Shown here in pieces: positions 8,329 to 31,819 of a stretch of DNA of 37,428 nucleotides. The position numbers and the translations under genes are program-made. Numbering within the stretch: position 1 is the first letter of the stretch; each line of letters opens with the position of its first letter. The stretch spans positions 1 through 37,428 of IMG/VR virus record IMGVR_UViG_2651869749_000010; one strand, given 5' to 3'. Source of the stretch: a virus (lineage: Duplodnaviria; Heunggongvirae; Uroviricota; Caudoviricetes). The notes beneath the pieces are model-generated. The model saw only the letters and a list, made by a program, of their open reading frames with translations, searched no databases and had not been told where the DNA came from.

Positions 8329-8330
8329 GA

Positions 8331-8822
8331 ATGCAAATTTCACCGGTTACTCTTCGTGTTGCGAAGGCGTTTATATCCAGACATCACCGACACAATAAAC
8401 CCCCGGTGGGGCATAAATTCAGCATTGGTCTGAGAAATGATGCCGGAGAATTGATAGGTGTGGCGACAGCCGGTAGACCTGTTGCACGACATTTGGACGA
8501 TGGATTAACGCTTGAAGTAAATCGCACATGTACCACAGGAGAACGCAACGCTAACAGCGCACTTTATGGTGCTGTCTGGCGGGCAGCAAAGGCTATGGGT
8601 TATCAACGTTGTATTACGTACACCCAGGCAGATGAATCAGGAGCATCTCTCCGCGCAGCTGGTTTTGTTCGTGTGAAAGAGCTTCCTCCAAGAAAAAGCT
8701 GGGCGGAATCAAGCGTCGCCCTGCGGAGTAAACGCGATCCGGTCGGAAACGGTGGTGTTCCTCGTGTGCTCTGGGAAATCAGGAGAATGAGTACCACTGG
8801 CATTCGCATCAAAGGAGAGTGA
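8331..8822 (+). CDS. Hypothetical basic protein (163 aa), first gene of accessory operon; possible degenerate GNAT-like fold
   Basis: ATG 8331 with AGGAGAGTGA RBS/junction; segment ALYGAVWRAAKAMGYQRCITYTQADESGASLRAAGF is loosely reminiscent of acetyltransferase-fold proteins but lacks a clear G-x-G loop. Confidence 0.55.
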   Translation: MQISPVTLRVAKAFISRHHRHNKPPVGHKFSIGLRNDAGELIGVATAGRPVARHLDDGLTLEVNRTCTTGERNANSALYGAVWRAAKAMGYQRCITYTQADESGASLRAAGFVRVKELPPRKSWAESSVALRSKRDPVGNGGVPRVLWEIRRMSTTGIRIKGE

Positions 8823-9091
8823 TATGGCAACTTTGACAAAAAAAGAACAAGCATGGTTGAGCGAATTACAGGACGTTCTTGATCGCTGCCCATCACCGAA
8901 AAAAATTGGTTTTTACACCATTGGCGATAAAAGCATTTACCTGTATGACCTGCGCCGCATGGATGAAATCATGGAGGCTCTTGATAATCGTTCGTCAATG
9001 GATTGGTGTGTTGCTGTCCATGATATGAATGCAGGGTTTGATGAAAAGATTTTGTTCCCCTCATCAGTTGAAAGCACAGCAGGATAAGGAC
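8811..9091 (+). repeat. 281-bp direct repeat, copy 1
   Basis: Identity by eye with 9497..9777; starts at AAAGGAGAGTGAT, ends at TAAGGAC. Confidence 0.85.
8824..9087 (+). CDS. Hypothetical small protein (87 aa), copy 1
   Basis: ATG 1 nt after upstream stop; identical second copy at 9510..9773. Confidence 0.6.
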   Translation: MATLTKKEQAWLSELQDVLDRCPSPKKIGFYTIGDKSIYLYDLRRMDEIMEALDNRSSMDWCVAVHDMNAGFDEKILFPSSVESTAG

Positions 9092-9097
9092 TAACAC

Positions 9098-9508
9098 ATG
9101 ACCACTATTACCAAAGAACGTATTGAATTGTTCATTAAAAATCCGCTTGAAAACGGGCTTACTCGTGACGAACAAATGGAACTGGCACGAATTGCACTGG
9201 CATCGCTGGAAGCAGAGGCAGTTATGTTCTGTATATCAGGACAAAATGTAGATTCAGAAGAACATGTATCAACCAGCAAAGCGGTTGTTGATGCCTGGGT
9301 TGAAGAATGGAATCAGGTTGACGGAAGTCCTGGCGAACCACTGTACAAAACTATGCCACTCTACTATCACGCTGCCTTGCCAGCGCCGGTAGTGCCGGAT
9401 GAAATGTATTGGCAGGATGCGCCAGTTGAAGGCAGCAGCAAAGCGGCTGCATACGCTACAGGCTGGAACGCCTGCCGCGCCGCTATGCTTCATGGGAAAG
9501 GAGAGTGA
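9098..9508 (+). CDS. Hypothetical protein (136 aa) bracketed by the duplicated 87-aa gene
   Basis: 136-aa ORF; stop followed 1 nt later by ATG of duplicate gene; no recognised domain. Confidence 0.55.
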   Translation: MTTITKERIELFIKNPLENGLTRDEQMELARIALASLEAEAVMFCISGQNVDSEEHVSTSKAVVDAWVEEWNQVDGSPGEPLYKTMPLYYHAALPAPVVPDEMYWQDAPVEGSSKAAAYATGWNACRAAMLHGKGE

Positions 9509-9777
9509 TATGGCAACTTTGACAAAAAAAGAACAAGCATGGTTGAGCGAATTACAGGACGTTCTTGATCGCTGCCCATCACCGAAAAAAATTGGTTTTT
9601 ACACCATTGGCGATAAAAGCATTTACCTGTATGACCTGCGCCGCATGGATGAAATCATGGAGGCTCTTGATAATCGTTCGTCAATGGATTGGTGTGTTGC
9701 TGTCCATGATATGAATGCAGGGTTTGATGAAAAGATTTTGTTCCCCTCATCAGTTGAAAGCACAGCAGGATAAGGAC
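9497..9777 (+). repeat. 281-bp direct repeat, copy 2
   Basis: Identity by eye with 8811..9091. Confidence 0.85.
9510..9773 (+). CDS. Hypothetical small protein (87 aa), copy 2 (identical to 8824..9087)
   Basis: ORF-track frame 9399..9773 contains the identical 87-aa sequence from ATG 9510; the N-terminal extension is the overlap with the upstream gene. Confidence 0.6.
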   Translation: MATLTKKEQAWLSELQDVLDRCPSPKKIGFYTIGDKSIYLYDLRRMDEIMEALDNRSSMDWCVAVHDMNAGFDEKILFPSSVESTAG

Positions 9778-9808
9778 CCAGCAAATATACACAACCTATA
9801 AAACACTA

Positions 9809-9833
9809 AAGCGCCTCAGGGGCGCTTTTTGTT
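9809..9833 (+). terminator. Rho-independent terminator closing the accessory operon
   Basis: GCGCC-tcag-GGGCGC hairpin followed by TTTTTGTTT. Confidence 0.6.
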
Positions 9834-9860
9834 TGCACAAAAGTGCACAAATTTGCACAA
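9834..9860 (+). repeat. Three TGCACAA direct repeats at exact 10-bp spacing
   Basis: tgcacaa at 9834, 9844, 9854 read directly. Confidence 0.6.
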
Positions 9861-10359
9861 TTTTTTTGAACGACTTTTTACCCTTCCGGCCCGCATGGCG
9901 GCTGGATCCGTCAAGGATCCGTGCGTGCACAAAAAAACGCGCTTTTTCTGCGCGCAGGTGACGGGGGAACAGCCCGCGTTTCAGGGGGTAAATAGCATTC
10001 CCTGAACGATGTCGCAGAGACACAACAGAATGGCCATATTTCTCACGCTGAGCATGAAAAAGGCGTGAGGGCTTTTGATTTGATGGGGTGAAAGGTAAGG
10101 CCGTCAAAATCGCACTGAGGCAGCGAGAACATACAGTCAACGCGGTGGAATTGCGTAAGAGTCTGACCGTCGATGGTGGCGATAAACTGGAAGGCGTCGT
10201 GAAATTATCTGATTGATACAGGAGCTGGAGAGCCGGGGCATAAATTTTTTATGCCCCGGCGAAGCAGCAGACAAGCGAAGCGCGTCAGCGATACGGCACC
10301 TTGCCGACCATACTTCATAAGTGCAAAATACGAGCAAAGAAATCAATGGAGGCTGTCTT

Positions 10360-10884
10360 ATGGTCATTAATTACAAGCAGTTAAGAGAAAAACGGGAGCA
10401 GGTAAAGGAGAGCTTTCGCCGCAATGAAGATCTGACCCCGCTTGTACGCCTTGCCCAGGGCATTGTTGATGCTTATGAAATCTCGCTGGAGCTGCCATCA
10501 CAGACCTGGACAGATAGCGACGGTAATCGCCAGCATTACGTTTCATGCGGACTGGAAGCAGCCGAAGGATTTCGCAGAATGCCTTTATCCCAGATCCCTG
10601 CCGCTACCCCCAAAGCATGGGGCAGCAATGATGAGCGAAAACTGACTTTTAGTATTGAAACGGTGGTTGACGACACACCTGGCGAAGTCGCGTTCGTACA
10701 CACTCCTGTTTCGATCGCAATGTATAACGATGAAATACAGGTTCGCGTTAATAATAATATCGTGCCACTTAAAGAAGGTAATTCACCCTACACCACCGTT
10801 TGTGAAGCCATTCAATATTACGTTCTCTCTGAAATTGATAATCTCAAGCCTGACGGCACCCAGAAAATGGTTCAACTCTGGTAA
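10360..10884 (+). CDS. Hypothetical protein convergent with the portal gene
   Basis: Frame 10321..10884; ATG at 10360; no recognised domain; overlaps portal 3' end by 41 bp on the opposite strand. Confidence 0.45.
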   Translation: MVINYKQLREKREQVKESFRRNEDLTPLVRLAQGIVDAYEISLELPSQTWTDSDGNRQHYVSCGLEAAEGFRRMPLSQIPAATPKAWGSNDERKLTFSIETVVDDTPGEVAFVHTPVSIAMYNDEIQVRVNNNIVPLKEGNSPYTTVCEAIQYYVLSEIDNLKPDGTQKMVQLW

Positions 10885-13695: not shown

Positions 13696-13849
13696 TGCTC
13701 CCCCTGAGTAATTACAGGAAGATTACCCGCGCGCGAAACCGTTCTCCTTACCCCCCTGTTCTGGCCGTTTTCTTACAACAAAAGCCCTTTGTATCAGCCT
13801 GTTACGCTTTGCCATCATGACTGAAGAACCAGTCAGAGGGGCAAAAACT
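13696..13849. promoter_or_regulatory. Divergent late promoter region (P_P / P_O equivalent)
   Basis: Intergenic region between divergent terminase and scaffold operons; no motif confirmed. Confidence 0.3.
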
Positions 13850-14686
13850 ATGGCTAATGAAAAAAAGACATCCCGCAAAAAGTTTCGCGTGGCTGTCTCC
13901 GGATCAACTGTTGATGGCCGCGAAATCAGCCCGGTACATCTGCGTGAAGCCGCCGAGAACTTCAACCCGGATGTTTACGCTGCCCGCGTGAACGTTGAGC
14001 ACTATCTCTCGCCATGCCCGTCAAGCGAATTTTCCGCAATGGGCGATGTCACCGCGCTGAGTACGGAAGATATTACGGAAGGCCCGCTGGCCGGACGTAC
14101 TGCGCTGTATGCAGAAATCGAACCGACCGAGCGCATGAAGCAGCTTGTCGCTGACGGCAAGAAAATCTATTCCAGTATCGAACTGCACCCGCAGTTCTCC
14201 GTTAACGGGCGCGCCTATCTGGTCGGGCTGGCGATGACCGACACCCCGGCAAGCCTGGGCACTGAGCGCCTGAAATTCACGGCACAGCAACGTCAGGCGG
14301 TGATGACGTTCAACAGTATCCAGGGTGAAGCGCCGCTTATCTCCGAAGCCATTGAGTCTGAAATCATCGAAATGGCAGAACAACGCCAGGAAGAAGGCAC
14401 CCAGTGGTTTAACCGCGTAATGGGGATTATTGGCCGTGGCCGCAAAGCGGATGACGCCAGTTTTTCCCGTATTCAGGAAGCGGTGGAAGGCGTCGCAACG
14501 TCACAGGCCGACATTATCGACCGTTTTAATGTGCTGGAAGCCCGCCATCAGCAGGACCGCCAGAAAATCACGTCACTGACCACAGAGCTGACAGCATTGA
14601 AGGAAAAACTGCGCACGCAGGACGGCGATCCGCAGAACCGCTTCACCGCAACGGGCGCAGCCTCCGACCAGCTGGCTGACTTCTGA
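13850..14686 (+). CDS. O: Capsid scaffolding protein (P2 gpO-like)
   Basis: Frame 13817..14686; start placed at ATG 13850 (MANEKKTSRKKFRVAVSGSTVDGREIS parallels recalled gpO N-terminus). Confidence 0.8.
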   Translation: MANEKKTSRKKFRVAVSGSTVDGREISPVHLREAAENFNPDVYAARVNVEHYLSPCPSSEFSAMGDVTALSTEDITEGPLAGRTALYAEIEPTERMKQLVADGKKIYSSIELHPQFSVNGRAYLVGLAMTDTPASLGTERLKFTAQQRQAVMTFNSIQGEAPLISEAIESEIIEMAEQRQEEGTQWFNRVMGIIGRGRKADDASFSRIQEAVEGVATSQADIIDRFNVLEARHQQDRQKITSLTTELTALKEKLRTQDGDPQNRFTATGAASDQLADF

Positions 14687-14709
14687 TAAGACAAAGGAGC
14701 AAATTTTTT

Positions 14710-15762
14710 ATGAATCTGGTGATGTCAGATATTACCCGCAACAAGCTGGGTTGCTATATGGCGAAGCAGGCGTCGCTTAACAATATCCCGGTATCTGCAC
14801 TGGTATCGCGATTTACCGTGGAACCCGCGGTGCAGCAGCGTTTTGAAAACGCCTCAAAGGAAAGTACCGAATTTACGAAAAGAATTAACGTGATCGGCGT
14901 GACCGACCAGAAAGGCGAAAAAATCCTCCTGGACACCACCGGGCCAATTGCGCGCACGAATAGCAGTTATGACGGCATCAAACGCCGTAACCCGAATAAC
15001 GTGATCGATATGAAGTCTCGTCAGTACCAGTGCGAACAGGTGAACTACGATACCTTTATTTCGTACCCACAGCTTGATACCTGGGCGGCCCACAGCGATT
15101 TTCAGTCCCGTATCAGTACACAGATCGCCCGGCAGGTAGCGCTTGATCGCATCATGATTGGCTTTAACGGCACATCCCACGCCTACGAGTCTGATTTTCA
15201 CACCAACAAGCTGCTTCAGGACGTTAACGTGGGCTGGCTGGAGCACATCAGAACCGATGCCAGCGAGCGCGTAATGAATGACGTGACGCTGACCTCCCGC
15301 AACATGGACAACACTGTGGCGCACGCGGGTAAGTATGCGAATGCCGATGCTCTGGTACAGGATGCGCGCTCATCCCTGCTGGATGAATGGCACAAGGAAG
15401 CTGACGACCTCGTGGTGATTATGGGGCGCAACCTGTTTAACTCGCTGCGTCTGCCCGTGCTGAACAGCATCAGCGGCCAGAATCCCAATGCGGAATTACT
15501 TGCCGGGCAGCTCATCCTGTCATCGCGCACCATTGGCGGGCTGGGCGTGTTCCTTGCGCCGTTCTTCCCGGATGCAACGATGCTTATCACCTCGTTCAAC
15601 AACCTGTCGATTTACTGGCAGAAAGGTTCAATGCGTCGCCTGATGAAAGACGAGCCGGAATACAACCGCATCGCCACCTACCAGTCCATCAATGACGCTT
15701 ATGTCGTTGAAGACTATGGCAAGTGCGCGATGGTCACTGGCCTGAAGTTCGCCGACAGCTAA
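14710..15762 (+). CDS. N: Major capsid protein (P2 gpN-like)
   Basis: 350-aa ORF with AGGAG RBS; segment SRFTVEPAVQQ...ESTEFTKRINVIGV...KGEKI parallels recalled gpN. Confidence 0.85.
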   Translation: MNLVMSDITRNKLGCYMAKQASLNNIPVSALVSRFTVEPAVQQRFENASKESTEFTKRINVIGVTDQKGEKILLDTTGPIARTNSSYDGIKRRNPNNVIDMKSRQYQCEQVNYDTFISYPQLDTWAAHSDFQSRISTQIARQVALDRIMIGFNGTSHAYESDFHTNKLLQDVNVGWLEHIRTDASERVMNDVTLTSRNMDNTVAHAGKYANADALVQDARSSLLDEWHKEADDLVVIMGRNLFNSLRLPVLNSISGQNPNAELLAGQLILSSRTIGGLGVFLAPFFPDATMLITSFNNLSIYWQKGSMRRLMKDEPEYNRIATYQSINDAYVVEDYGKCAMVTGLKFADS

Positions 15763-15771
15763 TCAACTCAC

Positions 15772-15790
15772 GGCGGGCATCATGCCCGCC
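15772..15790 (+). other. Stem-loop downstream of the capsid gene
   Basis: Palindrome GGCGGGCAT-c-ATGCCCGCC; no following T-run. Confidence 0.35.
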
Positions 15791-15807
15791 TGTAACGGAG
15801 AGAAAAA

Positions 15808-16608
15808 ATGATTACTCCTGCACAACAACACTGGCAGAACGTGATGGCACAGCGCGCAGGCCGGGCGAATGAAGGTGTGGACCACGCCGCGTGTACCGCG
15901 CATGAAGAGGTGCTGTATCGTCTGCGTCTGGCACAGGCCAGGCTAAAGGCCATACAGGCCAGAAGCGCGAAAGCCGCCATCAAAAAAGAGTTGTTGCCGG
16001 ACTTTTCCGGCTGGATTGAGGGAACGCTGGAGGCTGACGGCGGGCAACAGGACGAAGTAATTGCCACGCTGATGGTGTGGGCGATTGACTGCGGCGATCT
16101 TCCGCTGGCGCTGCGTATTGGTGCATATGTGGTCCGTCACAACCTCATCATGCCGGATAACTTTGGCCGTACTGCTGCCACGGTACTGACCGAAGAAATC
16201 TGCAACCCGGTACTGACGCAGGCCGGGACGGATGCCGACGCGGATTTATCCGCCTTTATCGAACCACTGGACACACTTTGGGAAATTGTCGCCAACCAGG
16301 ACATTCCGGACGAAGTGCGCGCCAAATTATGCAAGGCGTGTGCCTTTGCCCGTCGTGGCCTGACCGATGCAGACAACATGGCCTCATCACTGAAGCTGCT
16401 GCGCGAAGCGATGCACCTGAACCCGAACGCAGGTGTGAAACGCGAGATTGCAACCCTTTCCCGCGCCCTGAAAAAAGCCGATTCCGCAGCCGAACCAGAA
16501 GACGCCAGCGCACAGCAGGCGCAGGACGAAAGCAGCAAAAGTAAAAAGACAACGCGGAAGCCTGCAACACGAAAAACCACCGCGACGCAGAAGGCAAAGC
16601 GCGGTTAA
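15808..16608 (+). CDS. M: Terminase small/endonuclease subunit (P2 gpM-like)
   Basis: 266-aa ORF following capsid gene; position and size. Confidence 0.75.
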   Translation: MITPAQQHWQNVMAQRAGRANEGVDHAACTAHEEVLYRLRLAQARLKAIQARSAKAAIKKELLPDFSGWIEGTLEADGGQQDEVIATLMVWAIDCGDLPLALRIGAYVVRHNLIMPDNFGRTAATVLTEEICNPVLTQAGTDADADLSAFIEPLDTLWEIVANQDIPDEVRAKLCKACAFARRGLTDADNMASSLKLLREAMHLNPNAGVKREIATLSRALKKADSAAEPEDASAQQAQDESSKSKKTTRKPATRKTTATQKAKRG

Positions 16609-16622
16609 CGACTGACCCCGTC

Positions 16623-16694
16623 AGCGGGCGGCGTGCGCGGTGTTCCGGTTTGACTCCGTGACCGTTTACACCGCGCACCCACCGCCCGATTTTT
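16623..16694 (+). terminator. Long GC-rich hairpin with T-run after the small terminase gene
   Basis: gcgggcggcgtgcgcggtg ... caccgcgcacccaccgcccg followed by atttttt. Confidence 0.45.
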
Positions 16695-16709
16695 TCAGGA
16701 GTGAACCCC

Positions 16710-17204
16710 ATGAGTATGGTTGCCAGAACTAACCCCGGCCCCGCAGAGGACGACATCACCGATACCGATGATGGCGACACTCGCATTTCAGCGGGTGCAT
16801 TCTGGCCGGATATTGTGCTGCGTGAGCTGCGTCTGGCGGTACGACTGCCGGGCCGCGTGACCACCTCCCGCCTGCTGCATACCGCCACCGGGGCCATAGC
16901 ACACGTTACCCGCGAGCTGGAAGCATGGCAGCAGGAACAACAGGCGGCTGGCTATCAGACGCTGGCCGATGTTCCGGCCCCTGTAATTAACGGAGAAAGC
17001 GTCAATCTCTGGCACTGGCGCAATGCTGTTTATACCGCCACACGCGCCCTGATTCTGGAGCGTTACCGCGATGCGGACACAACGGACAAGGGCGACCGCC
17101 GGGCGGACGCACTGGATATACAGACATCGGATTTGTGGCGCGATGTGAGCTGGGCCATCTCTGACATTCTGGGACGACCGCGAATGTTTGCGGAGCTGTG
17201 CTGA
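16710..17204 (+). CDS. L: Head completion/stabilisation protein (P2 gpL-like)
   Basis: Frame 16701..17204, ATG 16710 with AGGAG RBS; position. Confidence 0.75.
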   Translation: MSMVARTNPGPAEDDITDTDDGDTRISAGAFWPDIVLRELRLAVRLPGRVTTSRLLHTATGAIAHVTRELEAWQQEQQAAGYQTLADVPAPVINGESVNLWHWRNAVYTATRALILERYRDADTTDKGDRRADALDIQTSDLWRDVSWAISDILGRPRMFAELC

Positions 17205-17404
17205 TGAAAGTGAAGGCACTGGAAGGCGACACCGTGGATTCGCTCTGTTTCCGGTACTACGGCACGACACAGGGCGTCACCGAAAAGGTGCTGGATGCCA
17301 ACCCCGGACTCTGTCAGCAGGTATTTCTGGACGCCGGGCAGGAAGTGGAGATGCCGGAGCCGGAGAAGAAGAAACGAGAAATGATTCAGTTGTGGGGGGA
17401 GTAG
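17204..17404 (+). CDS. X: Tail protein X (P2 gpX-like)
   Basis: 66-aa ORF from ATG 17204 (ATGA overlap with L); size and position as P2 X. Confidence 0.7.
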   Translation: MKVKALEGDTVDSLCFRYYGTTQGVTEKVLDANPGLCQQVFLDAGQEVEMPEPEKKKREMIQLWGE

Positions 17405-17406
17405 CA

Positions 17407-17730
17407 GTGAGCACCATTCAAACAGGGATCACAGAGCAGGTTATTGCGTGGCTCTTTGACCACCTGCCAACGGTGTATGCAGTAGGCGCGGCTGTCAGCA
17501 TTTCCGCGCTGATGAGTCTTTATGACGGACGAACACTGGTTCAGACCGTAACGGGATCGCTGGCGTGCGGCGTTCTTGCCATGGCCGTGGCCGGGTCGCT
17601 GCGCTTCTTCGGGATCCCTGAGGATGCAGTGACGTTTTTTGGTGCCTCAATCGGTTTTATGGGCGCAGAGAAAGCACGCGACAAGGTTATTGCAATATTT
17701 GATCGCAGGGTGAAGGAGAGGAACGAATGA
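17407..17730 (+). CDS. Y: Holin (P2 gpY-like)
   Basis: GTG start 3 nt after X stop; two hydrophobic segments; FIGFMG-type motif; precedes endolysin. Confidence 0.6.
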   Translation: MSTIQTGITEQVIAWLFDHLPTVYAVGAAVSISALMSLYDGRTLVQTVTGSLACGVLAMAVAGSLRFFGIPEDAVTFFGASIGFMGAEKARDKVIAIFDRRVKERNE

Positions 17731-18119
17731 GCAACACATTTAAATTCAGCAGCCGAAGCGAAAAGAATTTGCAGGGTGTAAATCCTGATCTGGTGAAAGT
17801 GACCCGACGGGCGCTGGAAATCTCGGAAGTGGATTTTGGTATCACCGAAGGATTGCGCAGTCGTTATCGTCAGAAGCAGCTCGTGACCACAGGCAAGAGC
17901 CAGACCATGAACAGTCGCCATCTCACAGGGCATGCCGTGGATGTTGTGGCTTATGTTGGCAGCCAGGTGTCATGGGAATGGCCGCTGTACGAAAAAATCG
18001 CAGCAGCATTCAGACAGGCCAGCCAGGAACTGAATATTCCGGTGGAATGGGGCGGCGACTGGAAGACCCTGAAAGACGGACCGCATTTTCAGTTACCACA
18101 CGGAGCCTATCCGGCATGA
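17727..18119 (+). CDS. Endolysin, peptidase M15-type L-alanyl-D-glutamate endopeptidase
   Basis: 130-aa ORF with SRHL...GHAVDV zinc-binding-type motifs; position in lysis cassette. Confidence 0.75.
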   Translation: MSNTFKFSSRSEKNLQGVNPDLVKVTRRALEISEVDFGITEGLRSRYRQKQLVTTGKSQTMNSRHLTGHAVDVVAYVGSQVSWEWPLYEKIAAAFRQASQELNIPVEWGGDWKTLKDGPHFQLPHGAYPA

Positions 18120-18511
18120 AGCTCTGGCCCACGCTTGGCGTCGCTTTCCTTCTGATTACATCCATGCGTCTGTCGTGGTCGCTGGGCCGGGAGAACGCCA
18201 GAAACGAAGCGCAGGCCAGCACCCTGAAAAGTACCGTCGACACACTGAATATCATCAGCGCCGGGGTACAGGATATGCAGCAGGTGCTGGCTCAGCTCCG
18301 CGCGGAAAATCAGCAACGCAATCAGGACGGAGAGGTAAGACGTGAACAGCTACGCAACGATATTGCAAAAGATGAATGCGCCCACGCTTTGCCTGACGCT
18401 CGTTTTACTGACAGGTTGCGCAGGCACGCAGAACGCGCCAGGGCCAGCGCCGTCAGTCCGGCTTATACCGCAGACGCTGACCATGCCGGTAACGCCTCCC
18501 CCCTTCCCTGA
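18116..18511 (+). CDS. i-spanin (LysB/Rz-like)
   Basis: ATG 18116 overlapping endolysin stop; N-terminal TM segment then charged coiled-coil-like region. Confidence 0.6.
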   Translation: MKLWPTLGVAFLLITSMRLSWSLGRENARNEAQASTLKSTVDTLNIISAGVQDMQQVLAQLRAENQQRNQDGEVRREQLRNDIAKDECAHALPDARFTDRLRRHAERARASAVSPAYTADADHAGNASPLP

Positions 18512-18653
18512 CCCACCCACATGGGGAAACCTCGGAATATGGGGCGACCGCCTTCTGGATGCACTGGAAACCTGTAACGCGGATAAACGGGCCATTGCTG
18601 AACTGGATAAGAGAATAGCCGAACTGACACACCAGACGGGAGTAACACAATGA
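18342..18653 (+). CDS. o-spanin lipoprotein (LysC/Rz1-like), embedded in and overlapping the i-spanin gene
   Basis: Lipobox LLTGC after a short hydrophobic stretch, proline-rich mature part; alternative start ATG 18372. Confidence 0.6.
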   Translation: MNSYATILQKMNAPTLCLTLVLLTGCAGTQNAPGPAPSVRLIPQTLTMPVTPPPFPDPPTWGNLGIWGDRLLDALETCNADKRAIAELDKRIAELTHQTGVTQ

Positions 18654-20530
18654 CCAGTAAGAACTTTGCACTGATTACAGCCATGACACAGGCTGAACTG
18701 ACTCAAAAGGTGAATGAACATCTTGCGAAAGGGTGGCATCTTCAGGGGGAGACGCGGGTTGCCTACGAACCCGGCACCCCGTGGTATCTAATGCAGGCAA
18801 TGGTGGACGATGGCACTACAGACATCTCACCTGATTCCCCCCAGCACGGCAGCGTGCCGGAGTGGTATTACGTGGTGGTACTTGCTGGTCAATCCAATGC
18901 CATGTCATATGGTGATGGAATGCCGCTGCCGGATTCTTACGATGCGCCCCACCCACGCATTAAGCAACTGGCCCGTCGCAACACAGTGACTCCCGGTGGT
19001 AAAGCATGCGCATTTAACGACATCATTCCGGCAGACCACTGCCTGCATGATGTTCAGGATATGAGCGCACTGAATCATCCGAAGGCAGACCTGAGCAAAG
19101 GGCAGTACGGCTGTGTCGGCCAGGGCTTACATATTGCCAAAAAACTGCTCCCGTATATCCCGAATAACGCGGGGATCCTGCTGGTACCATGCTGTCGTGG
19201 TGGTTCGGCATTCACTCAGGGCGCGGAGGGAACATTCAGTACGACCACGGGGGCCAGCCAGGATTCGGCGCGCTGGGGTGTGGGTAAACCGTTATATCAG
19301 GACCTGATTGCGCGCACCAAAGCTGCATTACAGAAGAACCCGAAAAATGTGTTGCTGGCGGTGTGCTGGATGCAGGGCGAATTTGACATGAGCGCTGCCA
19401 CCTACGCACAGCAACCGGACCTGTTCACGGCCATGCTGAAGCAGTTCCGTACTGACCTTTCCGGATTTAACGCGCAGTGCCATGGCGGCAGTGCTGCAGT
19501 TGTACCGTGGATTTGTGGCGACACGACGTATTACTGGAAAAACACATACGGCACACAGTATGACTCCGTCTACGGCGCGTACAAAAACAGGGAGAGCGAC
19601 AACGTTTTCTTTGTGCCGTTCATGACCGACGGTAACGGCAACAACACGCCCACCAACTTACCGGCAGAAGACCCGGATATTGCTGATGCAGGTTATTACG
19701 GCGCGCAATCCCGTAGTAATGGTAATTGGGTATCGTCAAATCGTCCGACACATTTCAGTTCATGGGCGCGCAGGGGCATTATTTCGGATCGCCTGGCAAC
19801 CGCTATTCTGAACGCAGTTGGTCGAACCAGCGCCTTCATCAGCGGTACCGCACCGGAGATTAAACCCTCGCCCGGCGGCGACACTCCATCGGGGCCGTCT
19901 GATGGTGACACATCCGTTCGTACAGTCTCCCTGCTGCCGACAGCCGGAGAGGCTGCTGCGCAGGGCTGGACCATCACCGGCGGCAGTGTTGCGCTGGAAG
20001 ATGGTGTGTTTAAGGTTACCAAGCAGAGCAATAAAACCTGGTCCCTGATGCATCCGGTGGATGACGCAGTCTCCCTGCTGACACGGGGTGGCAGACTGAG
20101 CTGTAAGTTTCGACTGTCAGGCGCACTGACCAACAACCAGTTCGGTCTGGGAATTTATCTGTATACCGATGTAGCGTTACCTGACGTCGTGGCGATGACC
20201 GGGACTGGTAACCCGTTCCTGATGTCGTTCTTCACCCAGACCACAGACGGCAAACTGAATCTGATGCATCACAAGAAAGCCGGAAACACAAAGTTGGGCG
20301 AGTTCGGGAATTACAGTAACGACTGGCAGACGCTGGAGCTGGTGTTCACCGCCGGCAGTGCCACGGTTACTCCGAAACTGAATGGAGTGGCTGGCCCGGC
20401 ATTCCAGGTCATAAAAGACAGTCTGACACTGGGGCTGAATGCGCTGACGTTAACTGATATCACTAAAAATGCCGCGTACGGCGTCGATATCGGCAGCCTG
20501 GTGCTGGAAATCAATAATCCCGCAGCATAA
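18650..20530 (+). CDS. SGNH/SASA-family sialate O-acetylesterase-like protein (NanS-p-like) with N-terminal DUF1737-like domain
   Basis: 626-aa ORF; N-terminus KNFALITAMTQAELTQKVNEHLAKGWHLQGE; esterase signature VVVLAGQSNAMSYGDG (GQSN block, nt ~18886-18903); inserted between lysis genes and tail completion gene. Confidence 0.65.
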   Translation: MTSKNFALITAMTQAELTQKVNEHLAKGWHLQGETRVAYEPGTPWYLMQAMVDDGTTDISPDSPQHGSVPEWYYVVVLAGQSNAMSYGDGMPLPDSYDAPHPRIKQLARRNTVTPGGKACAFNDIIPADHCLHDVQDMSALNHPKADLSKGQYGCVGQGLHIAKKLLPYIPNNAGILLVPCCRGGSAFTQGAEGTFSTTTGASQDSARWGVGKPLYQDLIARTKAALQKNPKNVLLAVCWMQGEFDMSAATYAQQPDLFTAMLKQFRTDLSGFNAQCHGGSAAVVPWICGDTTYYWKNTYGTQYDSVYGAYKNRESDNVFFVPFMTDGNGNNTPTNLPAEDPDIADAGYYGAQSRSNGNWVSSNRPTHFSSWARRGIISDRLATAILNAVGRTSAFISGTAPEIKPSPGGDTPSGPSDGDTSVRTVSLLPTAGEAAAQGWTITGGSVALEDGVFKVTKQSNKTWSLMHPVDDAVSLLTRGGRLSCKFRLSGALTNNQFGLGIYLYTDVALPDVVAMTGTGNPFLMSFFTQTTDGKLNLMHHKKAGNTKLGEFGNYSNDWQTLELVFTAGSATVTPKLNGVAGPAFQVIKDSLTLGLNALTLTDITKNAAYGVDIGSLVLEINNPAA

Positions 20531-20553
20531 GGAAGAGCAGGAGAGCAAAACAG

Positions 20554-21021
20554 ATGCTTAAGACAAACAGTCTGCGAGAGTCCATGCTTCATGGGTGTCG
20601 GTGGTGCCAGGCTAATCCCGAGAAATTCACCATTTTCGTGGAGAGCGGCAACATTGAAACGACCGGAGAAGCGCCCTCGTTTGTTTACCGCTATCAGATG
20701 GTGATGTTTGTCATGGATTACGCCGGAGAGCTGGACGACCTCACGCTGCCGCTGCTGGCGTGGTTATCCGAAAATCAGCCACAGTTGTTGCTCAATCCGG
20801 AGCGTAATCAGGACATCAAATTTTCTGCCGTTATCAATGACGATGACAGCGCCGATCTCCTGTTTACGCTCCCCCTGCGGGAACGCGTTCGCATCACGCG
20901 CAACAGTCAGGGCACACCGCAGGCAGAACACCTGCCGGAGCCAAAACCCCGTCTGCCCTCTTCCGAAGGCGACTGGTCGCATGTATTCCAGGATGTGACG
21001 TGGGGTGAAAGCGATGGATAA
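20554..21021 (+). CDS. R: Tail completion protein (P2 gpR-like)
   Basis: 155-aa ORF, size identical to P2 R, position. Confidence 0.7.
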   Translation: MLKTNSLRESMLHGCRWCQANPEKFTIFVESGNIETTGEAPSFVYRYQMVMFVMDYAGELDDLTLPLLAWLSENQPQLLLNPERNQDIKFSAVINDDDSADLLFTLPLRERVRITRNSQGTPQAEHLPEPKPRLPSSEGDWSHVFQDVTWGESDG

Positions 21022-21649
21022 GGCATTCACCAGCGTGGATGAAACCTTTGAGGCTATCCGCGACAGCCTGAATCAGCAGGCCATCAATAACATCGCCAGA
21101 AAGCTGGCACAGGATTTACGTCGCGCCCAGCAGGCACGTATCCGATCACAAAAAGCGCCGGACGGGACCGAATGGACACCACGCAGACGCCGCGTAACCC
21201 GGATACAGGAGCGCATTCGCTTTATCTGGAATAACGAAGCACGCACGCTGAAAAACTGGCATCACGACACGGGGAAATACGGGCGAACCATTACCGGGTG
21301 GGATGAGGATAAAAACAATATCCGCACGTTTTACCGGGATGACATCGACCGTTTTCTGGAAATACGCACCCGGCGCATCAACCAGGACAGCACAAAGCGC
21401 GTCCCCATGTTCGTAAAACTGCGCACCGCCCGCTACCTGAAAGCCCGTGCAGATGCCTCCGGTGTGACGGTGGGTTACAGCGGCGTGGCCGCACGTATTG
21501 CACGCGTTCATCAGTTCGGTGAGCGCGATCAGGTTGCGCCGGGCATTTTCACCGATTACCCGGTACGTGAGCTGTTGGGTATCAGCCAGGCAGATGAGCG
21601 CCTGATTTATAACACGGTGCTGGGCCGGATTGCGGAGGCTGTACGGTGA
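21014..21649 (+). CDS. S: Virion morphogenesis/tail completion protein (P2 gpS-like)
   Basis: Frame 21005..21649, ATG 21014; position between R and V. Confidence 0.65.
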   Translation: MDKAFTSVDETFEAIRDSLNQQAINNIARKLAQDLRRAQQARIRSQKAPDGTEWTPRRRRVTRIQERIRFIWNNEARTLKNWHHDTGKYGRTITGWDEDKNNIRTFYRDDIDRFLEIRTRRINQDSTKRVPMFVKLRTARYLKARADASGVTVGYSGVAARIARVHQFGERDQVAPGIFTDYPVRELLGISQADERLIYNTVLGRIAEAVR

Positions 21650-24075: not shown

Positions 24076-25628
24076 CAGTGAAATACTACGCCATTCTGAC
24101 TAATCAGGGCGCGGCACGACTGGCTAACGCGACGATGCTCGGCAGTAAGCTGAATCTGACGCGAATGGCCGTTGGTGATGCAAATGGTGTGTTACCAACA
24201 CCAGACCCTGCACAAACAAAACTGATTAACCAGAAACGCATTGCACCGCTGAATCTTCTGAGTGTTGACCCTAACAATCAGAGCCAGATTATTGCGGAGC
24301 AAATCATCCCTGAAAGCGAGGGTGGATTCTGGATCCGTGAGATTGGTCTTTATGATGATAAAGGTGTACTCATTGCGGTGGCAAACTGCCCGGAAACGTA
24401 CAAACCGCAGTTGCAGGAAGGCAGTGGACGCACCCAGACTATCCGCATGATTCTGGTTGTCACGAACACCGAAGCCATCACGCTGAAAATCGACCCGTCT
24501 GTGGTTCTGGCAACCCGCAAATATGTGGATGATAAAATCTCAAAGCACGAGCAGTCACGACGTCACCCGGACGCCTCGCTGACCGCAAAAGGCTTTGTTC
24601 AACTTAGCAGTGCCACGGACAGTCAATCAGAAACTGAGGCTGCCACGCCGAAGGCTGTGAAAATCGCGTATGATCTGGCCTGGGGAAAATACACAGCCCA
24701 GGATGCAACAACGACCCGTAAAGGGATCGTACAACTGAGCAGTGCCACCAACAGCACCTCTGAAACGCTGGCCGCCACACCAAAAGCCGTCAAGGCGGCA
24801 TACGACCTTGCAGCCGGCAAGGCCCCCGTCAGCCACACTCACCCATGGAGTCAGATAACGGGAGTGCCTGCTGCCTCGCTGACGGCAAAAGGCACCGTAC
24901 AACTGAGCAGTGCCATCAACAGCACGTCTGAAATACTGGCCGCCACACCGAAAGCGGTCAAGGATGCATACGATCTGGCAAACGGAAAACAACCGGCAGA
25001 TGCCACGCTCACTGCTCTGGCAGGACTTGCCACTGCAGCAGATCGGTTGCCTTATTTTACCGGAGCAGACCGCGCAGCGCTGGCAACCCTTACAGCTATT
25101 GGTCGCGCTATTATCGCTAAGGGCAGTATAAAAGATGTCCTCAATTACCTTGGTTTGGGGGAAGGCTCTGCATTGCCTGTTGGTGTACCGGTTCCATGGC
25201 CCACCGCCACACCGCCAGCAGGCTGGTTACAGTGCAACGGAGCTACGTTCACCAAAGAACAATATCCTGTTCTGGCCAGAGTCTACCCGACCCTCCGTCT
25301 TCCCGATTTACGCGGTGAGTTTATCCGTGGATGGGACGACGGGCGCAAGATTGACGAGGGGCGTAAGTTGCTTTCATGGCAGAAAGGTACACTGGTCGGC
25401 GGTCATGACGATAACGATTCTGCGCTTGATATCTCGTACATGAGTAACGGAAATAATATTGACTATGGCGGCGATAAGGTGTTTGCGGGGAATTACCGTA
25501 GCGATTATTTGTGGTACGCAATACTGGGTGGAACAAACAGTCGCGCAAAAGCCGAATTAAACGGAGCATTCTTTAACATAACCCGCCCCCGCAATATCGC
25601 GTTTAACTATATCGTGAGGGCGGCGTGA
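24072..25628 (+). CDS. H: Tail fibre protein H (constant N-terminal part plus currently joined variable C-terminal cassette)
   Basis: 518-aa ORF with three internal tandem repeats and C-terminal RPRNIAFNYIVRAA shared with two silent cassettes. Confidence 0.85.
   Translation: MTVKYYAILTNQGAARLANATMLGSKLNLTRMAVGDANGVLPTPDPAQTKLINQKRIAPLNLLSVDPNNQSQIIAEQIIPESEGGFWIREIGLYDDKGVLIAVANCPETYKPQLQEGSGRTQTIRMILVVTNTEAITLKIDPSVVLATRKYVDDKISKHEQSRRHPDASLTAKGFVQLSSATDSQSETEAATPKAVKIAYDLAWGKYTAQDATTTRKGIVQLSSATNSTSETLAATPKAVKAAYDLAAGKAPVSHTHPWSQITGVPAASLTAKGTVQLSSAINSTSEILAATPKAVKDAYDLANGKQPADATLTALAGLATAADRLPYFTGADRAALATLTAIGRAIIAKGSIKDVLNYLGLGEGSALPVGVPVPWPTATPPAGWLQCNGATFTKEQYPVLARVYPTLRLPDLRGEFIRGWDDGRKIDEGRKLLSWQKGTLVGGHDDNDSALDISYMSNGNNIDYGGDKVFAGNYRSDYLWYAILGGTNSRAKAELNGAFFNITRPRNIAFNYIVRAA
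24569..24990 (+). repeat. Three tandem ~40-aa coding repeats inside the tail fibre gene
   Basis: SLTAKG.VQLSSA..S.SE..AATPKAVK.AYDLA.GK repeated three times. Confidence 0.7.
25141..25168 (+). other. Invertase crossover site 1 (boundary of constant and variable tail-fibre segments)
   Basis: Homology with the two inverted cassettes begins exactly at TTGGTTTGGGGG (25150-25161). Confidence 0.55.
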
Positions 25629-25634
25629 TACCGT

Positions 25635-26249
25635 TCAACTGGCAAGTGCCAGTGGCGCTTCCGGCCAGCTGATTTCAGGTGCCGTGCTGATATCCAGTGC
25701 GTTCAGCTCGTCGATATAATCCAGCACGGCGTTCAGTTTTGCCGTTTCTTCTGGTGTCAGACTGCGACCAGCACGCAGTTTGAGGTTGATAAGATCGACG
25801 GACGCCATCGCCTGTTTCACCCGTTGCTGGCGTTGCTGTCTGGCAACCTCCAGTTCTGCGGCTCGCTGCCGTTCAGTATCGGTTACCCACGCCTCACCGT
25901 TCCAGGTATCCCATGGCGTGGCTGGCTGTTTTGTGGTGGTGTCCGCCGGGTAATCACCCGGTTGGGTAATCAGAACAGGGTTACCGTTCTCCGTGCTGTA
26001 TACCGTCTCGCCGCGGTGATCAGGCACATGCTCCCACCCGTTCAGCGTGGCAGTCCGGCAAACCACGTAACCCGAAATTGCCTCCGGCGGTGCATCGGCG
26101 CACGAATGTGCCGGAGTACCCACCCCAAGGGCGAGATACTCCACAGAGGATGAGGTGTATTCCCGGGTTTCCTCGTCATAGTGATATACAGTGATATCGC
26201 CCGCTACAGTGGCGATACCGTTTTCATCCAGAACTGCAGTGTTACTCAT
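25635..26249 (-). CDS. Tail fibre assembly chaperone (gpG/Tfa-like)
   Basis: 204-aa ORF immediately downstream (same strand) of silent fibre cassette; typical size and position. Confidence 0.75.
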   Translation of the reverse strand: MSNTAVLDENGIATVAGDITVYHYDEETREYTSSSVEYLALGVGTPAHSCADAPPEAISGYVVCRTATLNGWEHVPDHRGETVYSTENGNPVLITQPGDYPADTTTKQPATPWDTWNGEAWVTDTERQRAAELEVARQQRQQRVKQAMASVDLINLKLRAGRSLTPEETAKLNAVLDYIDELNALDISTAPEISWPEAPLALAS

Positions 26250-26761
26250 TAAACTGCCCTCACAATGTAATTAAGTGCAATGCTACGGGGTCTGACAGTG
26301 ATACCCTTCGCATACCCGCTTCTGATAGAGGTCAGAATAGTAGCCTGCATACCATTGTCTGACATTGCCACGACAGGATCGCTGAATGTTGTCCCGTCCG
26401 GCATTTTAAAGCTGCCCTCACGAAGGTCTGTAATGGAATCTTCATTGTTGAATCCCATGCCGACTATCCCCGAGGTTCCCGTAGTGTCCTGGTTATAATA
26501 ATCCAGCATTGCTGTTCTTAACAGCGTTGCCCCTTGTGCGGACAGCAACTTACGTCCTGTATCAACTTTGCGCCCGTCGTCCCATCCACGGATAAACTCA
26601 CCGCGTAAATCGGGAAGACGGAGGGTCGGGTAGGCTCTGGCCAGAACAGGATATTGTTCTTTTGTAAAGGCGCGCCCGTCGCACTTTAACCAGCCTTCTG
26701 GCGGTGTGGCGGTGGGCCACGGAACCGGTACACCAACAGGCAATGCAGAGCCTTCCCCCAA
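26249..26761 (-). CDS. Silent alternative tail-fibre C-terminal cassette 1 (promoterless; expressed only after inversion)
   Basis: Begins with GEGSALPVGVPVPWPTATPPEGW shared with H and ends NYIVRAV; inverted orientation. Confidence 0.7.
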   Translation of the reverse strand: MGEGSALPVGVPVPWPTATPPEGWLKCDGRAFTKEQYPVLARAYPTLRLPDLRGEFIRGWDDGRKVDTGRKLLSAQGATLLRTAMLDYYNQDTTGTSGIVGMGFNNEDSITDLREGSFKMPDGTTFSDPVVAMSDNGMQATILTSIRSGYAKGITVRPRSIALNYIVRAV

Positions 26762-26780
26762 ACCAACGTTTTTATGCCGC
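26750..26780 (-). other. Invertase crossover site 2
   Basis: CCCCCAAACCAACGTTTTTAT; AAACCAA-GTTTTT resembles hix/gix half-site consensus from memory. Confidence 0.5.
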
Positions 26781-27245
26781 CCTTACGATATAATTAAAGG
26801 CAATATTACGAGGACGGTTTTCATTAGCTGTTGGCACGACACGAGAGGCGTCGAATCCAAGGTCATCGGTTTTGTCTATAGTAGTTGTGTTATTCGGCAT
26901 TCTCGCTGATCGTGTTCCTGCATCGTAAAAAGCCCCTCTGATTGCATCAAAAGACATACCGATCCCGCCATCTGCGAATCCCTCAATATTTCTTATTGCA
27001 TCCCCCTGTGAAGATAATAATTGTCGCCCGGCATCCACACCACGTCCGTCATCCCAGCCACGAATAAATTCACCGCGTAAATCGGGAAGACGGAGGGTCG
27101 GGTAGGCTCTGGCCAGAACAGGATATTGTTCTTTTGTAAAGGCGCGCCCGTCGCACTTTAACCAGCCTTCTGGCGGTGTGGCGGTGGGCCACGGAACCGG
27201 TACACCAACAGGCAATGCAGAGCCTTCCCCCAAACCAACGTTTTC
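26772..27245 (-). CDS. Silent alternative tail-fibre C-terminal cassette 2
   Basis: Shares LGEGSALPVG...RGEFIRGWDDGR and C-terminal RPRNIAFNYIVRAA; ORF-track start upstream of the crossover site is artefactual. Confidence 0.65.
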   Translation of the reverse strand, partial: ENVGLGEGSALPVGVPVPWPTATPPEGWLKCDGRAFTKEQYPVLARAYPTLRLPDLRGEFIRGWDDGRGVDAGRQLLSSQGDAIRNIEGFADGGIGMSFDAIRGAFYDAGTRSARMPNNTTTIDKTDDLGFDASRVVPTANENRPRNIAFNYIVRAA

Positions 27246-27252
27246 GTTTTTA
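27222..27252 (-). other. Invertase crossover site 3
   Basis: CCCCCAAACCAACGTTTTCGTTTTTAT; ~173-bp near-identical direct repeat with site-2 region. Confidence 0.5.
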
Positions 27253-27304
27253 TCCCTACCTATACCAACTCTGTATTTTTCACGAAACAAAGAGGATGTT
27301 TTTT

Positions 27305-27904
27305 ATGCAAATTGGCTATATTCGTGTGTCAACAAACGACCAGAACACGGATTTACAACGCAATGCACTGAACTGCGCAGGATGTGAACTGATTTTTGAA
27401 GATAAAATCAGCGGAACGAAATCAACCAGACCGGGATTGAAAAAACTGCTCAGAACGCTATCAGAAGGAGATACGCTGGTTGTCTGGAAGCTGGACAGAC
27501 TGGGCAGAAGTATGAAACACCTGATCACGCTTATTGAGGAATTGCGGGAAAAAGGTGTTAATTTCCGTAGTCTGACGGACAGCATTGACACGTCAACACC
27601 CATGGGGCGTTTCTTTTTTCACGTCATGGGGGCTTTAGCCGAAATGGAACGTGAATTAATTGTAGAGCGTACACTGGCCGGGCTGGCAGCAGCACGCGCA
27701 CAAGGACGCATTGGCGGACGTCGCCCGAAGTTGACAAAAGAACAACACGAGCAAATAGCGAGGCTGATTAAAAACGGTCATGACAGGAAACAACTGGCGA
27801 TCATTTACGACATCGGCATATCGACGATTTATCGTTATCACCCTGTAGGCGATATACAGGCTGAAGAAACAACCAGACAGACTCAGGAAAATGAAAACCG
27901 CTAA
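27305..27904 (+). CDS. Serine DNA invertase (Hin/Gin/Cin/Pin family)
   Basis: MQIGYIRVSTNDQNTDLQRNAL...GDTLVVWKLDRLGRS...MGRFFFHVMGALAEMERELIVERT...GGRRPKL closely parallels recalled Hin; frame of 27176..27904, ATG 27305. Confidence 0.9.
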   Translation: MQIGYIRVSTNDQNTDLQRNALNCAGCELIFEDKISGTKSTRPGLKKLLRTLSEGDTLVVWKLDRLGRSMKHLITLIEELREKGVNFRSLTDSIDTSTPMGRFFFHVMGALAEMERELIVERTLAGLAAARAQGRIGGRRPKLTKEQHEQIARLIKNGHDRKQLAIIYDIGISTIYRYHPVGDIQAEETTRQTQENENR

Positions 27905-27915
27905 TCTGACCATTA

Positions 27916-27940
27916 GCGGTTTTGCGTTAATCAAAACAGC
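27916..27940. terminator. Hairpin between convergent invertase and tail gene U
   Basis: GCGGTTTTG-cgttaat-CAAAACAGC imperfect inverted repeat; no clear T-run. Confidence 0.3.
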
Positions 27941-28425
27941 CCTTTAACGGAGCTGGCCGCGCTGTTAAGAGATGATGTCACTTTATCTTTGAAGCCGGAC
28001 AGCATATCGCTGAACGATGAGGATTGCAGGCGCTCCCGCAAATCCTCATCACAGCGTTCAAGAGTCAGTGAAAATTCTATCTTTTTCGCCTTACCATAGC
28101 GATCAAACTCGGAACGGGTCGTATTCGTTTCAGTCAGTACATACATGCCGTAAATCTGCCCGACACCATCAATCAGAGGCCAGGGGCGTCCTGTATATGC
28201 CTGCGTGGTCAGCAACGAAAGCGACACTTCGCCACCTGTAATTTCAGGATAAAGCACGCCGGAAAGCACAATGCGATCATCACCTGCGCCGATATACTGC
28301 CAGCCTGCTGAACGGTTAACGCGTTCATTTTTCACATGCCGCCAGCTTTTGTTTTGCTGTAACTGCTGATGCGGCAGCGTGCGCAGCTCAAAAACAAACA
28401 TGCCGTAGATCATCATCATGGCCAT
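27931..28425 (-). CDS. U: Tail protein U (P2 gpU-like)
   Basis: MMMIYGMFVFELRT...VLSGVLYPEITGG parallels recalled P2 gpU. Confidence 0.8.
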   Translation of the reverse strand: MAMMMIYGMFVFELRTLPHQQLQQNKSWRHVKNERVNRSAGWQYIGAGDDRIVLSGVLYPEITGGEVSLSLLTTQAYTGRPWPLIDGVGQIYGMYVLTETNTTRSEFDRYGKAKKIEFSLTLERCDEDLRERLQSSSFSDMLSGFKDKVTSSLNSAASSVKGLF

Positions 28426-28431
28426 GACTCC

Positions 28432-31764: not shown

Positions 31765-31819
31765 CAGTTGTCTCCTTTTCAGTCAGAGGCGACGCACTGC
31801 GCCGCCTGCATATTACTTA

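Follow-up and report, generated by a model that had tools for sequence, protein, structure and literature searches.

The DNA analysed here, referred to below as the window, is the whole 37,428-nucleotide stretch of the IMG/VR virus record IMGVR_UViG_2651869749_000010, and it was found to be a complete P2-family prophage of E. coli of the P88 type (Xuanwuvirus). It carries an integrase, the gpA replication gene, portal, terminase, scaffold, a P2-type capsid, baseplate, tail fibre, sheath, tube and gpD, and its head module is 96% identical to that of phage P88, a member of the genus Xuanwuvirus. The subject of this study is a gene in the late region of this prophage, located at 18650..20530 on the + strand, which is predicted to encode a sialate O-acetylesterase of the NanS-p type. 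The initial annotation, made from the sequence alone, had described a NanS-like esterase of 626 amino acids (aa) with a DUF1737-like N-terminus, an SGNH/SASA core with a GQSN motif and a C-terminal beta-rich domain, had recognized in this combination the architecture of NanS-p enzymes, and had regarded the gene as cargo inserted in a P2-like lysis cassette, at the place where P2 has lysA. The open reading frame (ORF) of 626 aa plus stop, with an ATG start, was confirmed, and so were the three domains, all of which score above the Pfam gathering cut-offs.

The N-terminal domain (aa 1-55; 18650..18814, + strand) matches DUF1737 (PF08410) at aa 4-53 with 30.2 bits against a cut-off of 24; it is of a P2-family subtype and is proposed below to be a capsid-docking module. 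Linker 1 (aa 56-69, TTDISPDSPQHGSV; 18815..18856, + strand) is hypervariable, with only 7-22% identity between alleles, and holds ISP/DSP motifs. The SASA/SGNH catalytic core (aa 70-390; 18857..19819, + strand) includes the SASA match (aa 75-271, 49.3 bits) and all four SGNH blocks in intact form: GQSNA (80-84), RGGSAF (183-188), MQGEFD (241-246) and RPTHFS (365-370), judged by the reference blocks of the solved E. coli NanS structure 3PT5 (PMC10792757). The RPTH variant of block IV has already been recorded from prophage 86. The nucleophile Ser82 (codon 18893-18895) lies in the GQSN motif (aa 80-83) and His368 (codon 19751-19753) in RPTHFS. Linker 2 (aa 391-430; 19820..19939, + strand), rich in Pro, Ser and Gly, contains the motifs KPSPGG and PSGPS and leads to a C-terminal domain (aa 431-626; 19940..20527, + strand) that is predicted to be a lectin-like beta-sandwich, with a DUF6645 (PF20350) match at aa 477-587 (70.1 bits).

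Comparison with solved structures gave E 1.9e-123 for aa 69-388 against NanS/YjhS (3PT5) and E 3.8e-30 for aa 431-623 against the C-terminal domain of NanS-p (6YP6), a signal far above chance, by which the alignment check of the NanS-p assignment came out in its favour. The protein also matches phrog_143 over its full length (PHROGs, 1079 bits), a family that has no assigned function; no NCBIfam model matched the 626-aa esterase, and neither a hydrophobic leader nor a membrane segment was found in it. The identity of the enzyme as a NanS-p-type sialate O-acetylesterase is, as far as homology and motifs can tell, near certain. NanS-p of strain EDL933 and five such proteins of the O104:H4 strain C227-11phicu are reported to be active on Neu5,9Ac2 and mucin (PMC8065619; PMC5923452). 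In the AlphaFold model, whose overall confidence is moderate (predicted local distance difference test, pLDDT, 64.6), both linkers are disordered, with low pLDDT in linker 1 and at aa 399-422 of linker 2; the C-terminal domain is all-beta with pLDDT 84-91, and the N-terminal domain is modelled as beta 5-11, helix 14-26, beta 30-40 and beta 43-52, with block-mean pLDDT 56-80 (aa 1-50). Three of the four aromatic residues in the proposed sugar site of the phi24B C-terminal domain are kept here as F498, Y503 and F528, the fourth being replaced by L594.

According to Pfam and PHROGs, the genes upstream of the esterase are those for gpL, gpX, a holin of the lambda S type, an M15 endolysin, LysB and LysC, and those downstream are for gpR, gpS and gpV. 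The order in P2 is Y-K-lysA-lysB-lysC-R-S, with lysA before lysB-lysC, which places the esterase at the lysC/R boundary and not in the lysA slot; P88-type phages lack lysA, and in P88 itself lysB/lysC are directly followed by R. Thus, the P2-like lysis cassette recognized initially is supported by the P2-family late-gene neighbours, while the lysA position had to be abandoned. The preceding gene, lysC (18342..18653, + strand), encodes an Rz1-like o-spanin (Pfam LysC, lipobox LTGC, annotated by PGAP in locus L001), and its stop codon overlaps the esterase start codon in the sequence ATGA. On the other side, 23 nucleotides (nt) separate the esterase stop from the start of the tail completion gene R (20554..21021, + strand; P2_Phage_GpR, 132 bits), with a GGAG Shine-Dalgarno sequence at the junction. 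By gene content, all these belong to a late "O-type" operon (O, N, M, L, X, holin, endolysin, lysB, lysC, esterase, R, S; 13817..21649, + strand), which is organized as the O operon of P2 and would be transcribed as a single unit.

Scans for sigma-70 promoters and terminators around the esterase returned nothing above shuffled controls, and the P2 late-promoter motif TGT-N12-ACA is rarer than chance expectation and hence uninformative. The GC content of the gene is 0.53-0.55, against 0.56-0.58 in the flanks. The ATGA overlap, the short distance to R, the lack of a promoter or terminator excess and the GC content close to that of the flanks all indicate that the esterase is built into the late operon. 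An autonomous "moron" cassette was also considered and ruled out, as the gene has no promoter or terminator of its own above the controls and its start overlaps the lysC stop.

Intact copies 99.4-99.9% identical to the gene are present in many E. coli genomes, under the annotation "DUF6645 domain-containing protein", and in E. coli of many serotypes; PGAP annotates the gene as intact in every match listed among the hundreds of matching genomes. In O104:H4 outbreak strains, a 99.4% identical allele resides in a P2-family prophage between btuC and ihfA, and C227-11 has five detectable copies of the core, one of which is the window allele at 98.8%. The records of vB_EcoM-705R2 and 569R5, which carry the gene, are prophages predicted in silico from genomes. 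In a census of 5,426 complete E. coli genomes, the whole endolysin-to-S arrangement was found in 373 and the junction between lysC and the N-terminal domain in 376, never without lysC. The junction probe matches 1,039 genomes in all, of which a further 663 stay below 80% probe coverage, and among the matches listed these align only with its lysC part, i.e. the first 38 nt, which means that they carry this type of lysC without the esterase's N-terminal domain. The enterotoxigenic E. coli strain H10407 is an example of such an empty site. Compared to it, similarity stops ~55 nt before the lysC stop and restarts ~65 nt within R, so that the segment differing from the empty-site P88-type prophages (18598..20620) comprises the last ~55 nt of lysC, the esterase and the first ~65 nt of R. 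Since the similarity breaks inside lysC and R, the segment appears to have entered by recombination with another P2-family phage rather than by a clean insertion.

The history of the gene differs between its parts. DNA matches to Shiga toxin (Stx) phages begin only at nucleotide 207, and the identities to the window protein were calculated separately for the N-terminal domain (1-55), the core (70-390) and the C-terminal domain (431-626). An allele in the lambdoid locus L007, located in the usual position between Q/tRNAs and the holin, is 31% identical in the N-terminal domain, but 98.1% in the core and 98.0% in the C-terminal domain; all lambdoid alleles fall at 22-33% in the N-terminal domain. 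The alleles of divergent P2-family phages (loci L095, L100 and L101) are 55-64% identical to the window protein in the N-terminal domain, 68-71% in the core and only 32-37% in the C-terminal domain. These phages, which have no near relative among the deposited phages, share with the window ~62% identity in gpN, ~73% in terminase and ~57% in gpR, and have a lysozyme-type endolysin, yet the esterase occupies the same lysC-to-R slot. In E. coli genomes, the P2-type N-terminal domain was found solely beside lysC. Its occurrence in the same slot in distant members of the P2 family argues against a simple recent insertion from a lambdoid phage. In our reading of these comparisons, the esterase would be an old resident of the lysC-R slot in a part of the P2 family, in which the enzyme body and the lectin-like domain were overwritten by lambdoid alleles and the N-terminal domain stayed specific to the lineage. 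A recent exchange with lambdoid prophages is apparent for the enzyme body and C-terminal domain alone, the N-terminal domain being specific to the P2 family.

The P2-type N-terminal domain stands isolated among known sequences. An exhaustive HMMER search of 1.84 billion representatives gave 10 matches at E <= 1e-3, mostly small standalone proteins or frameshifted fragments, and a word-indexed protein search with this domain alone gave near-identical fragments only. The alignment of its relatives is too divergent to retrieve loci by pattern; two of the standalone relatives led to no viral loci and a third to 11 metagenomic loci, while a scan of genome contigs returned only 5 close loci. Searched by sequence, the domain has no solved homologue, only spurious coiled-coil matches.

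We compared the type of the N-terminal domain with that of the head and packaging genes up to 10 kb away in 160 IMG/VR loci, 80 of them nearest to the window protein and 80 nearest to the homologous protein gp84 of phage phi24B. Head types were finally assigned by percent identity, as tblastn coverage alone overstated the association owing to cross-matches between terminases of the lambda type and of the ClpP-fusion type. The two types agree in 51 of the 52 informative loci, over four head types. The P2-type domain goes with the gpN/gpP head of P2 (8/8 loci), the lamB domain (that of phi24B) with the phi24B-type head (6/6), and the lamC domain (..DDGAALIQA..) with a ClpP-protease-capsid fusion (7/7); the lamA domain (..PVAITPYTLMQA..) goes with the lambda-type head in 30 loci, although in 4 of these at only 67-70% identity, and with the ClpP-protease-capsid fusion in one, the sole exception (L175). 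The clusters of cores and C-terminal domains (>=97% identity), on the other hand, cut across the types of the N-terminal domain. For instance, L148 and L151 combine a lamA domain and lambda-like head and packaging genes (in L148 only a 67% match to the lambda references) with a core 96.9% identical to that of phi24B, and L167 combines essentially the same core (98.4%) with a lamB domain and a phi24B-type head; the window core is 98% identical to alleles that accompany lambda-type heads. In lambdoid phages the N-terminal domain is encoded by the gene end that lies most distant from the head genes, and linkage alone would thus predict that it is the C-terminal domain that tracks the head type.

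The same enzyme occurs behind a third, unrelated N-terminal module in Mu-like prophages. Over 88-89% of the length of the window protein, their esterases (P0073 and P0137) show 59-61% identity to it, with the same SASA core and DUF6645, and are encoded in the late region near the tail-fibre and mom genes; in loci L110-L112 and L208 (L110:10001-12070; L208:7638-9686) the gene is placed between a Gin-type invertase and the com/mom region. In place of DUF1737, for which there is no match, they have a module of ~110 aa (MTSKWVQLSSMPGNF... or MSDSQWKMLSAMPGEF...) that has no match in Pfam. This distribution supports the view of the N-terminal module as the phage-specific part of the protein.

Three further loci have hybrid joints inside the esterase gene. 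In L062 (10001-12339) and L080 (2769-5107), a lambdoid N-terminal domain and upstream region are followed, 26 nt past the gene, by a P2 gpR gene that is 100% identical, and in L015 (10001-11878 and downstream) the P2 head and lysis genes and the P2-type N-terminal domain continue into a lambdoid terminase and portal. They look like reciprocal nanS-p recombination products of P2-family and lambdoid prophages, formed by inversion, in a hybrid phage or by misassembly. Protein P0024, encoded on an NCBI contig of 6.6 Mb, has 752 aa and joins an esterase that has the P2-type N-terminal domain to the Collar domain of a tail fibre; the in-frame fusion point is close to the end of the esterase's C-terminal domain, and the fusion probably arose by a deletion from R to H in a degraded P2-family prophage.

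The function of the N-terminal domain can be approached by analogy with phi24B. In an April 2026 preprint, the NanS-p homologue gp84 of this phage was identified as a capsid-decorating protein, whose DUF1737 domain, made up of a helix and three strands, assembles as a hexamer and blocks the pore at the hexon centre, with Tyr42 as a "tooth"; the enzyme body is apparently cleaved off at Ser/Pro-containing linkers, the one homologous to linker 2 being a cleavage site (10.64898/2026.04.10.717836). The layout predicted for the window domain, a helix and three strands, is the same as that described for the capsid-binding domain of gp84. The ISP/DSP motifs make linker 1 a possible processing site, comparable to SISSP beside the last ordered residue of gp84.

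We propose, with a probability of about 0.6, that the gene encodes a functional sialate 9-O-acetylesterase of the NanS-p family, which this P88-type prophage makes late and sets free at lysis and which is probably attached to the P2-type capsid by its DUF1737 domain. Given the overlap of its start with the lysC stop and the lack of a promoter or terminator of its own, the esterase would be produced only once the prophage enters lytic growth, and, having no signal peptide, it would leave the cell solely through phage lysis. The SGNH core, with Ser82 and His368, would O-deacetylate Neu5,9Ac2 and the O-acetylated sialic acids of mucin, and the C-terminal lectin-like domain would direct the enzyme to glycans. 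The 55-residue DUF1737 domain would serve as the capsid-docking module of the P2 lineage, tethering the enzyme, at least initially, to hexamers of gpN (14710..15762, + strand; the P2-family major capsid protein, annotated in L001), which is its candidate docking partner, and the flexible Ser/Pro-rich linkers would permit later release of the enzyme body. For the docking step by itself, the least certain one, which extends the phi24B case to a P2-type capsid, we see roughly even odds. A broader generalization is that the N-terminal modules of NanS-p-type esterases are exchangeable docking domains, each for one type of capsid, the window protein being the P2-capsid edition; it is suggested by the match of four DUF1737 subtypes with four head types and by the non-DUF1737 module of the Mu-like phages, and we advance it tentatively, with somewhat less confidence than an even chance.

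Several points weigh against this proposal. Docking in phi24B rests on a single preprint, in which the enzyme body was found cleaved from the capsid-bound domain, and Tyr42 of phi24B aligns with Thr43 here, although Y39, W45 and Y46 flank the predicted hairpin tip and may stand in for it. The structural model, with its overall pLDDT of 64.6, is only moderate. The 160 loci are not phylogenetically independent, and in the exceptional locus L175 (esterase at 308-2239) a lamA domain lies upstream of ClpP-fusion head genes 94% identical to the lamC reference, which may reflect a recent recombination or mean that the pairing is not obligatory. Finally, in the P2 context the N-terminal domain adjoins the head and lysis genes, so that plain linkage could explain its association with the head type.

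The last point is also part of the case for the most serious competing explanation, which we regard as possible but distinctly less probable. It holds that the esterase is solely soluble cargo, a "public good" released from the lysing fraction of the population that lets kin grow on O-acetylated sialic acids, and that the N-terminal domain has no role in the virion of P2-family phages and might merely drive oligomerization or folding. The model published for NanS-p is the same, with growth on Neu5,9Ac2 dependent on the nanS-p copy number (PMC8065619; PMC5923452), and the lack of a signal peptide and the location in a late operon beside lysis genes agree with it. P88 and several hundred genomes without the gene presumably represent viable phages, by which the esterase is not an essential structural protein; decoration proteins, however, are typically non-essential, and the empty sites are no argument against docking. 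What soluble cargo leaves unexplained is that in lambdoid phages the N-terminal domain tracks the head type across a freely recombining enzyme body, and that each of three phage families has an N-terminal module of its own; it is also at odds with the direct observation of DUF1737 on the phi24B capsid (10.64898/2026.04.10.717836). Release of a mucin-acting enzyme at lysis and association with the virion had both been offered in the initial annotation, and both remain live: the former rests on the NanS-p assays of EDL933 and O104:H4 (PMC8065619), the latter on the phi24B cryo-electron microscopy preprint and on the co-variation of N-terminal domain and head type.

Two other explanations carry much less weight. 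A virion-borne enzyme could act on a bacterial substrate, such as O-antigen or capsular polysaccharide (e.g. O-acetylated polysialic acid), and thereby aid adsorption or superinfection, a possibility raised as open in a review (PMC8065619), and the virion association of the phi24B homologue would put the enzyme where such an activity could matter. We consider it improbable, as the head, in contrast to the tail, is a poor location for an enzyme that modifies receptors, the core shares 98% identity with lambdoid NanS-p alleles of a family whose members have been assayed on free and mucin-bound sialic acids (PMC8065619), and the gene is spread across many serotypes of E. coli, with no bacterial substrate shown. 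That the gene is a decaying, functionless remnant in a defective prophage is very hard to maintain. Some related loci are indeed rearranged, namely the three with hybrid joints and the tail-fibre fusion, and many database entries are fragments or frameshifts. However, the window ORF is intact with all catalytic blocks, the surrounding P2-family gene set is complete, and intact genes are listed by PGAP among the matches in hundreds of genomes; moreover, another lineage of the P2 family, with only ~57-73% identity in the structural proteins gpN, TerL and gpR, has kept the architecture. Conservation thus effectively refutes this reading.

Among the known systems, the closest are the lambdoid NanS-p proteins, such as L0105/z1466 of 933W, vb_24B_21/gp84 of phi24B and "yjhS" of Stx1a phages, which have the same architecture of DUF1737, SASA/SGNH and DUF6645, the same catalytic blocks, no signal peptide, and late-gene expression beside lysis genes (presumed here). 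The core and C-terminal domain of the window protein are 82-98% identical to alleles of the lambda-head type, compared to 70% and 37%, respectively, for phi24B gp84. The host phage is, however, of the P2/Peduoviridae kind, and the gene sits between lysC and gpR in an O-type late operon instead of the Q-stx-S region, i.e. the stx-flanking position between the antiterminator Q with tRNAs or stx and the holin S; from this slot, its control would be exerted by a P2-type late activator and not by Q antitermination. The N-terminal domain forms a separate DUF1737 subfamily, with which phmmer at database scale does not retrieve the lambdoid ones, and there are no DUF1378/DUF826 companion genes downstream in the window. 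One or both of these small genes are found after the esterase in prophages of the lambdoid, Mu-like and divergent P2-family kinds (L113:12036-12200, L110:12235-12707, L002:5073-5565), and they may form a travelling cassette with it.

Chromosomal NanS (YjhS, 3PT5) has a homologous SGNH/SASA domain with the same Ser-His residues and oxyanion blocks, but its solved chain of 337 residues aligns only to aa 69-388 and has no counterpart of DUF1737 or of the C-terminal domain. NanS is periplasmic, has a signal peptide and belongs to the sialic-acid regulon of the host, not to a phage late operon. With phi24B gp84, the window protein shares a DUF1737 domain of ~55 residues, its helix and three strands being predicted here, and Ser/Pro linkers that flank the enzyme body; the phi24B capsid is a T=9 podovirus head built of a Phage_capsid_3 protein, whereas the head here would be of the P2 gpN type. 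The likeness proposed to Hoc of T4 and Psu of P4 lies in the attachment at hexon centres of an HK97-fold capsid and in being dispensable for assembly; there is no sequence relationship, and these proteins have Ig-like or stabilizing functions and are not enzymes. Psu decorates hexamers of gpN.

Several other regions of the window were noted as well. The protein gpS (21005-21649) is 214 aa long, that of P2 having ~150 aa, and two stretches of it match the Phage_tail_S profile. The segment at 25147-27904 is apparently an invertible tail-fibre segment. Inverted repeats of 229-236 nt connect the 3' part of gene H for the tail fibre (25147-25382) with two alternative cassettes for Collar domains, encoded on the other strand (26541-26769 and 27006-27241). 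Next to them are genes for tail-fibre assembly (25635-26249, minus strand) and for a serine invertase of the Gin kind (27176-27904). In its tail-fibre region, the O104:H4 relative has a serine O-acetyltransferase gene instead. The genes for sheath, tube, E, tape-measure and U (27931-33516) are on the minus strand, inverted relative to V-W-J-I-H, as they are in the O104:H4 relative, an arrangement that differs from the P2 map. The region between gene A and the portal (7927-10884) is a cargo region in a stretch of lower GC content (0.47-0.48). It contains only the N-terminal 133 aa of a ParM-like protein, which is full-length in the O104:H4 relative, followed by an ORF of the Mom family (8325-8822) and several ORFs with no match in Pfam or PADLOC; no defence-gene match was obtained with PADLOC for the esterase or for the unannotated cargo ORFs. 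Between the integrase and a repressor-like helix-turn-helix gene (1008-2035), where the GC content is the lowest in the window (0.38-0.40), there are two ORFs on the minus strand, at 1008-1355 for a DUF2511 protein and at 1385-2035 for a product of 216 aa that matches no family; both are probably cargo expressed during lysogeny.

NanS-p proteins count as factors linked to fitness and virulence in enterohaemorrhagic E. coli, and have nearly always been treated as passengers of lambdoid Stx phages. In the searchable literature they are tied to lambdoid phages only, "nanS-p" together with "P2-like" gave merely unrelated co-occurrence, and nothing was found on DUF1737 in P2-family phages; neither esterases nor sialic acid are mentioned in a 2026 survey that covers 5,945 P2-like genomes, and Pascal et al. 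(2023) catalogued the N-terminal variants D1-D3 in Stx phages only. The family as such is known, and the window allele is common and already annotated. What appears to be new is the P2-lineage subfamily of the N-terminal domain, the lysC-R slot, and the pattern in which the N-terminal module goes with the head type whereas phage families exchange the enzyme among themselves.

A copy in a P2-family prophage is present in about 7% of complete E. coli genomes. P2-family and lambdoid prophages freely exchange the enzyme body, while the N-terminal domain remains true to the head type. The common core also acts as a recombination bridge between otherwise unrelated prophages. The docking proposal provides a testable rule for DUF1737, namely that a swap of the N-terminal domain should swap the capsid specificity. 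Should the domain anchor the enzyme to the capsid, many temperate coliphages from different and unrelated families, P2-family myoviruses included, would display the same mucin-modifying unit of esterase and lectin on their heads, a horizontally traded "mucus-processing decoration" system common to them, which would bear on the behaviour of these phages in gut mucus and on the spread of the esterase.

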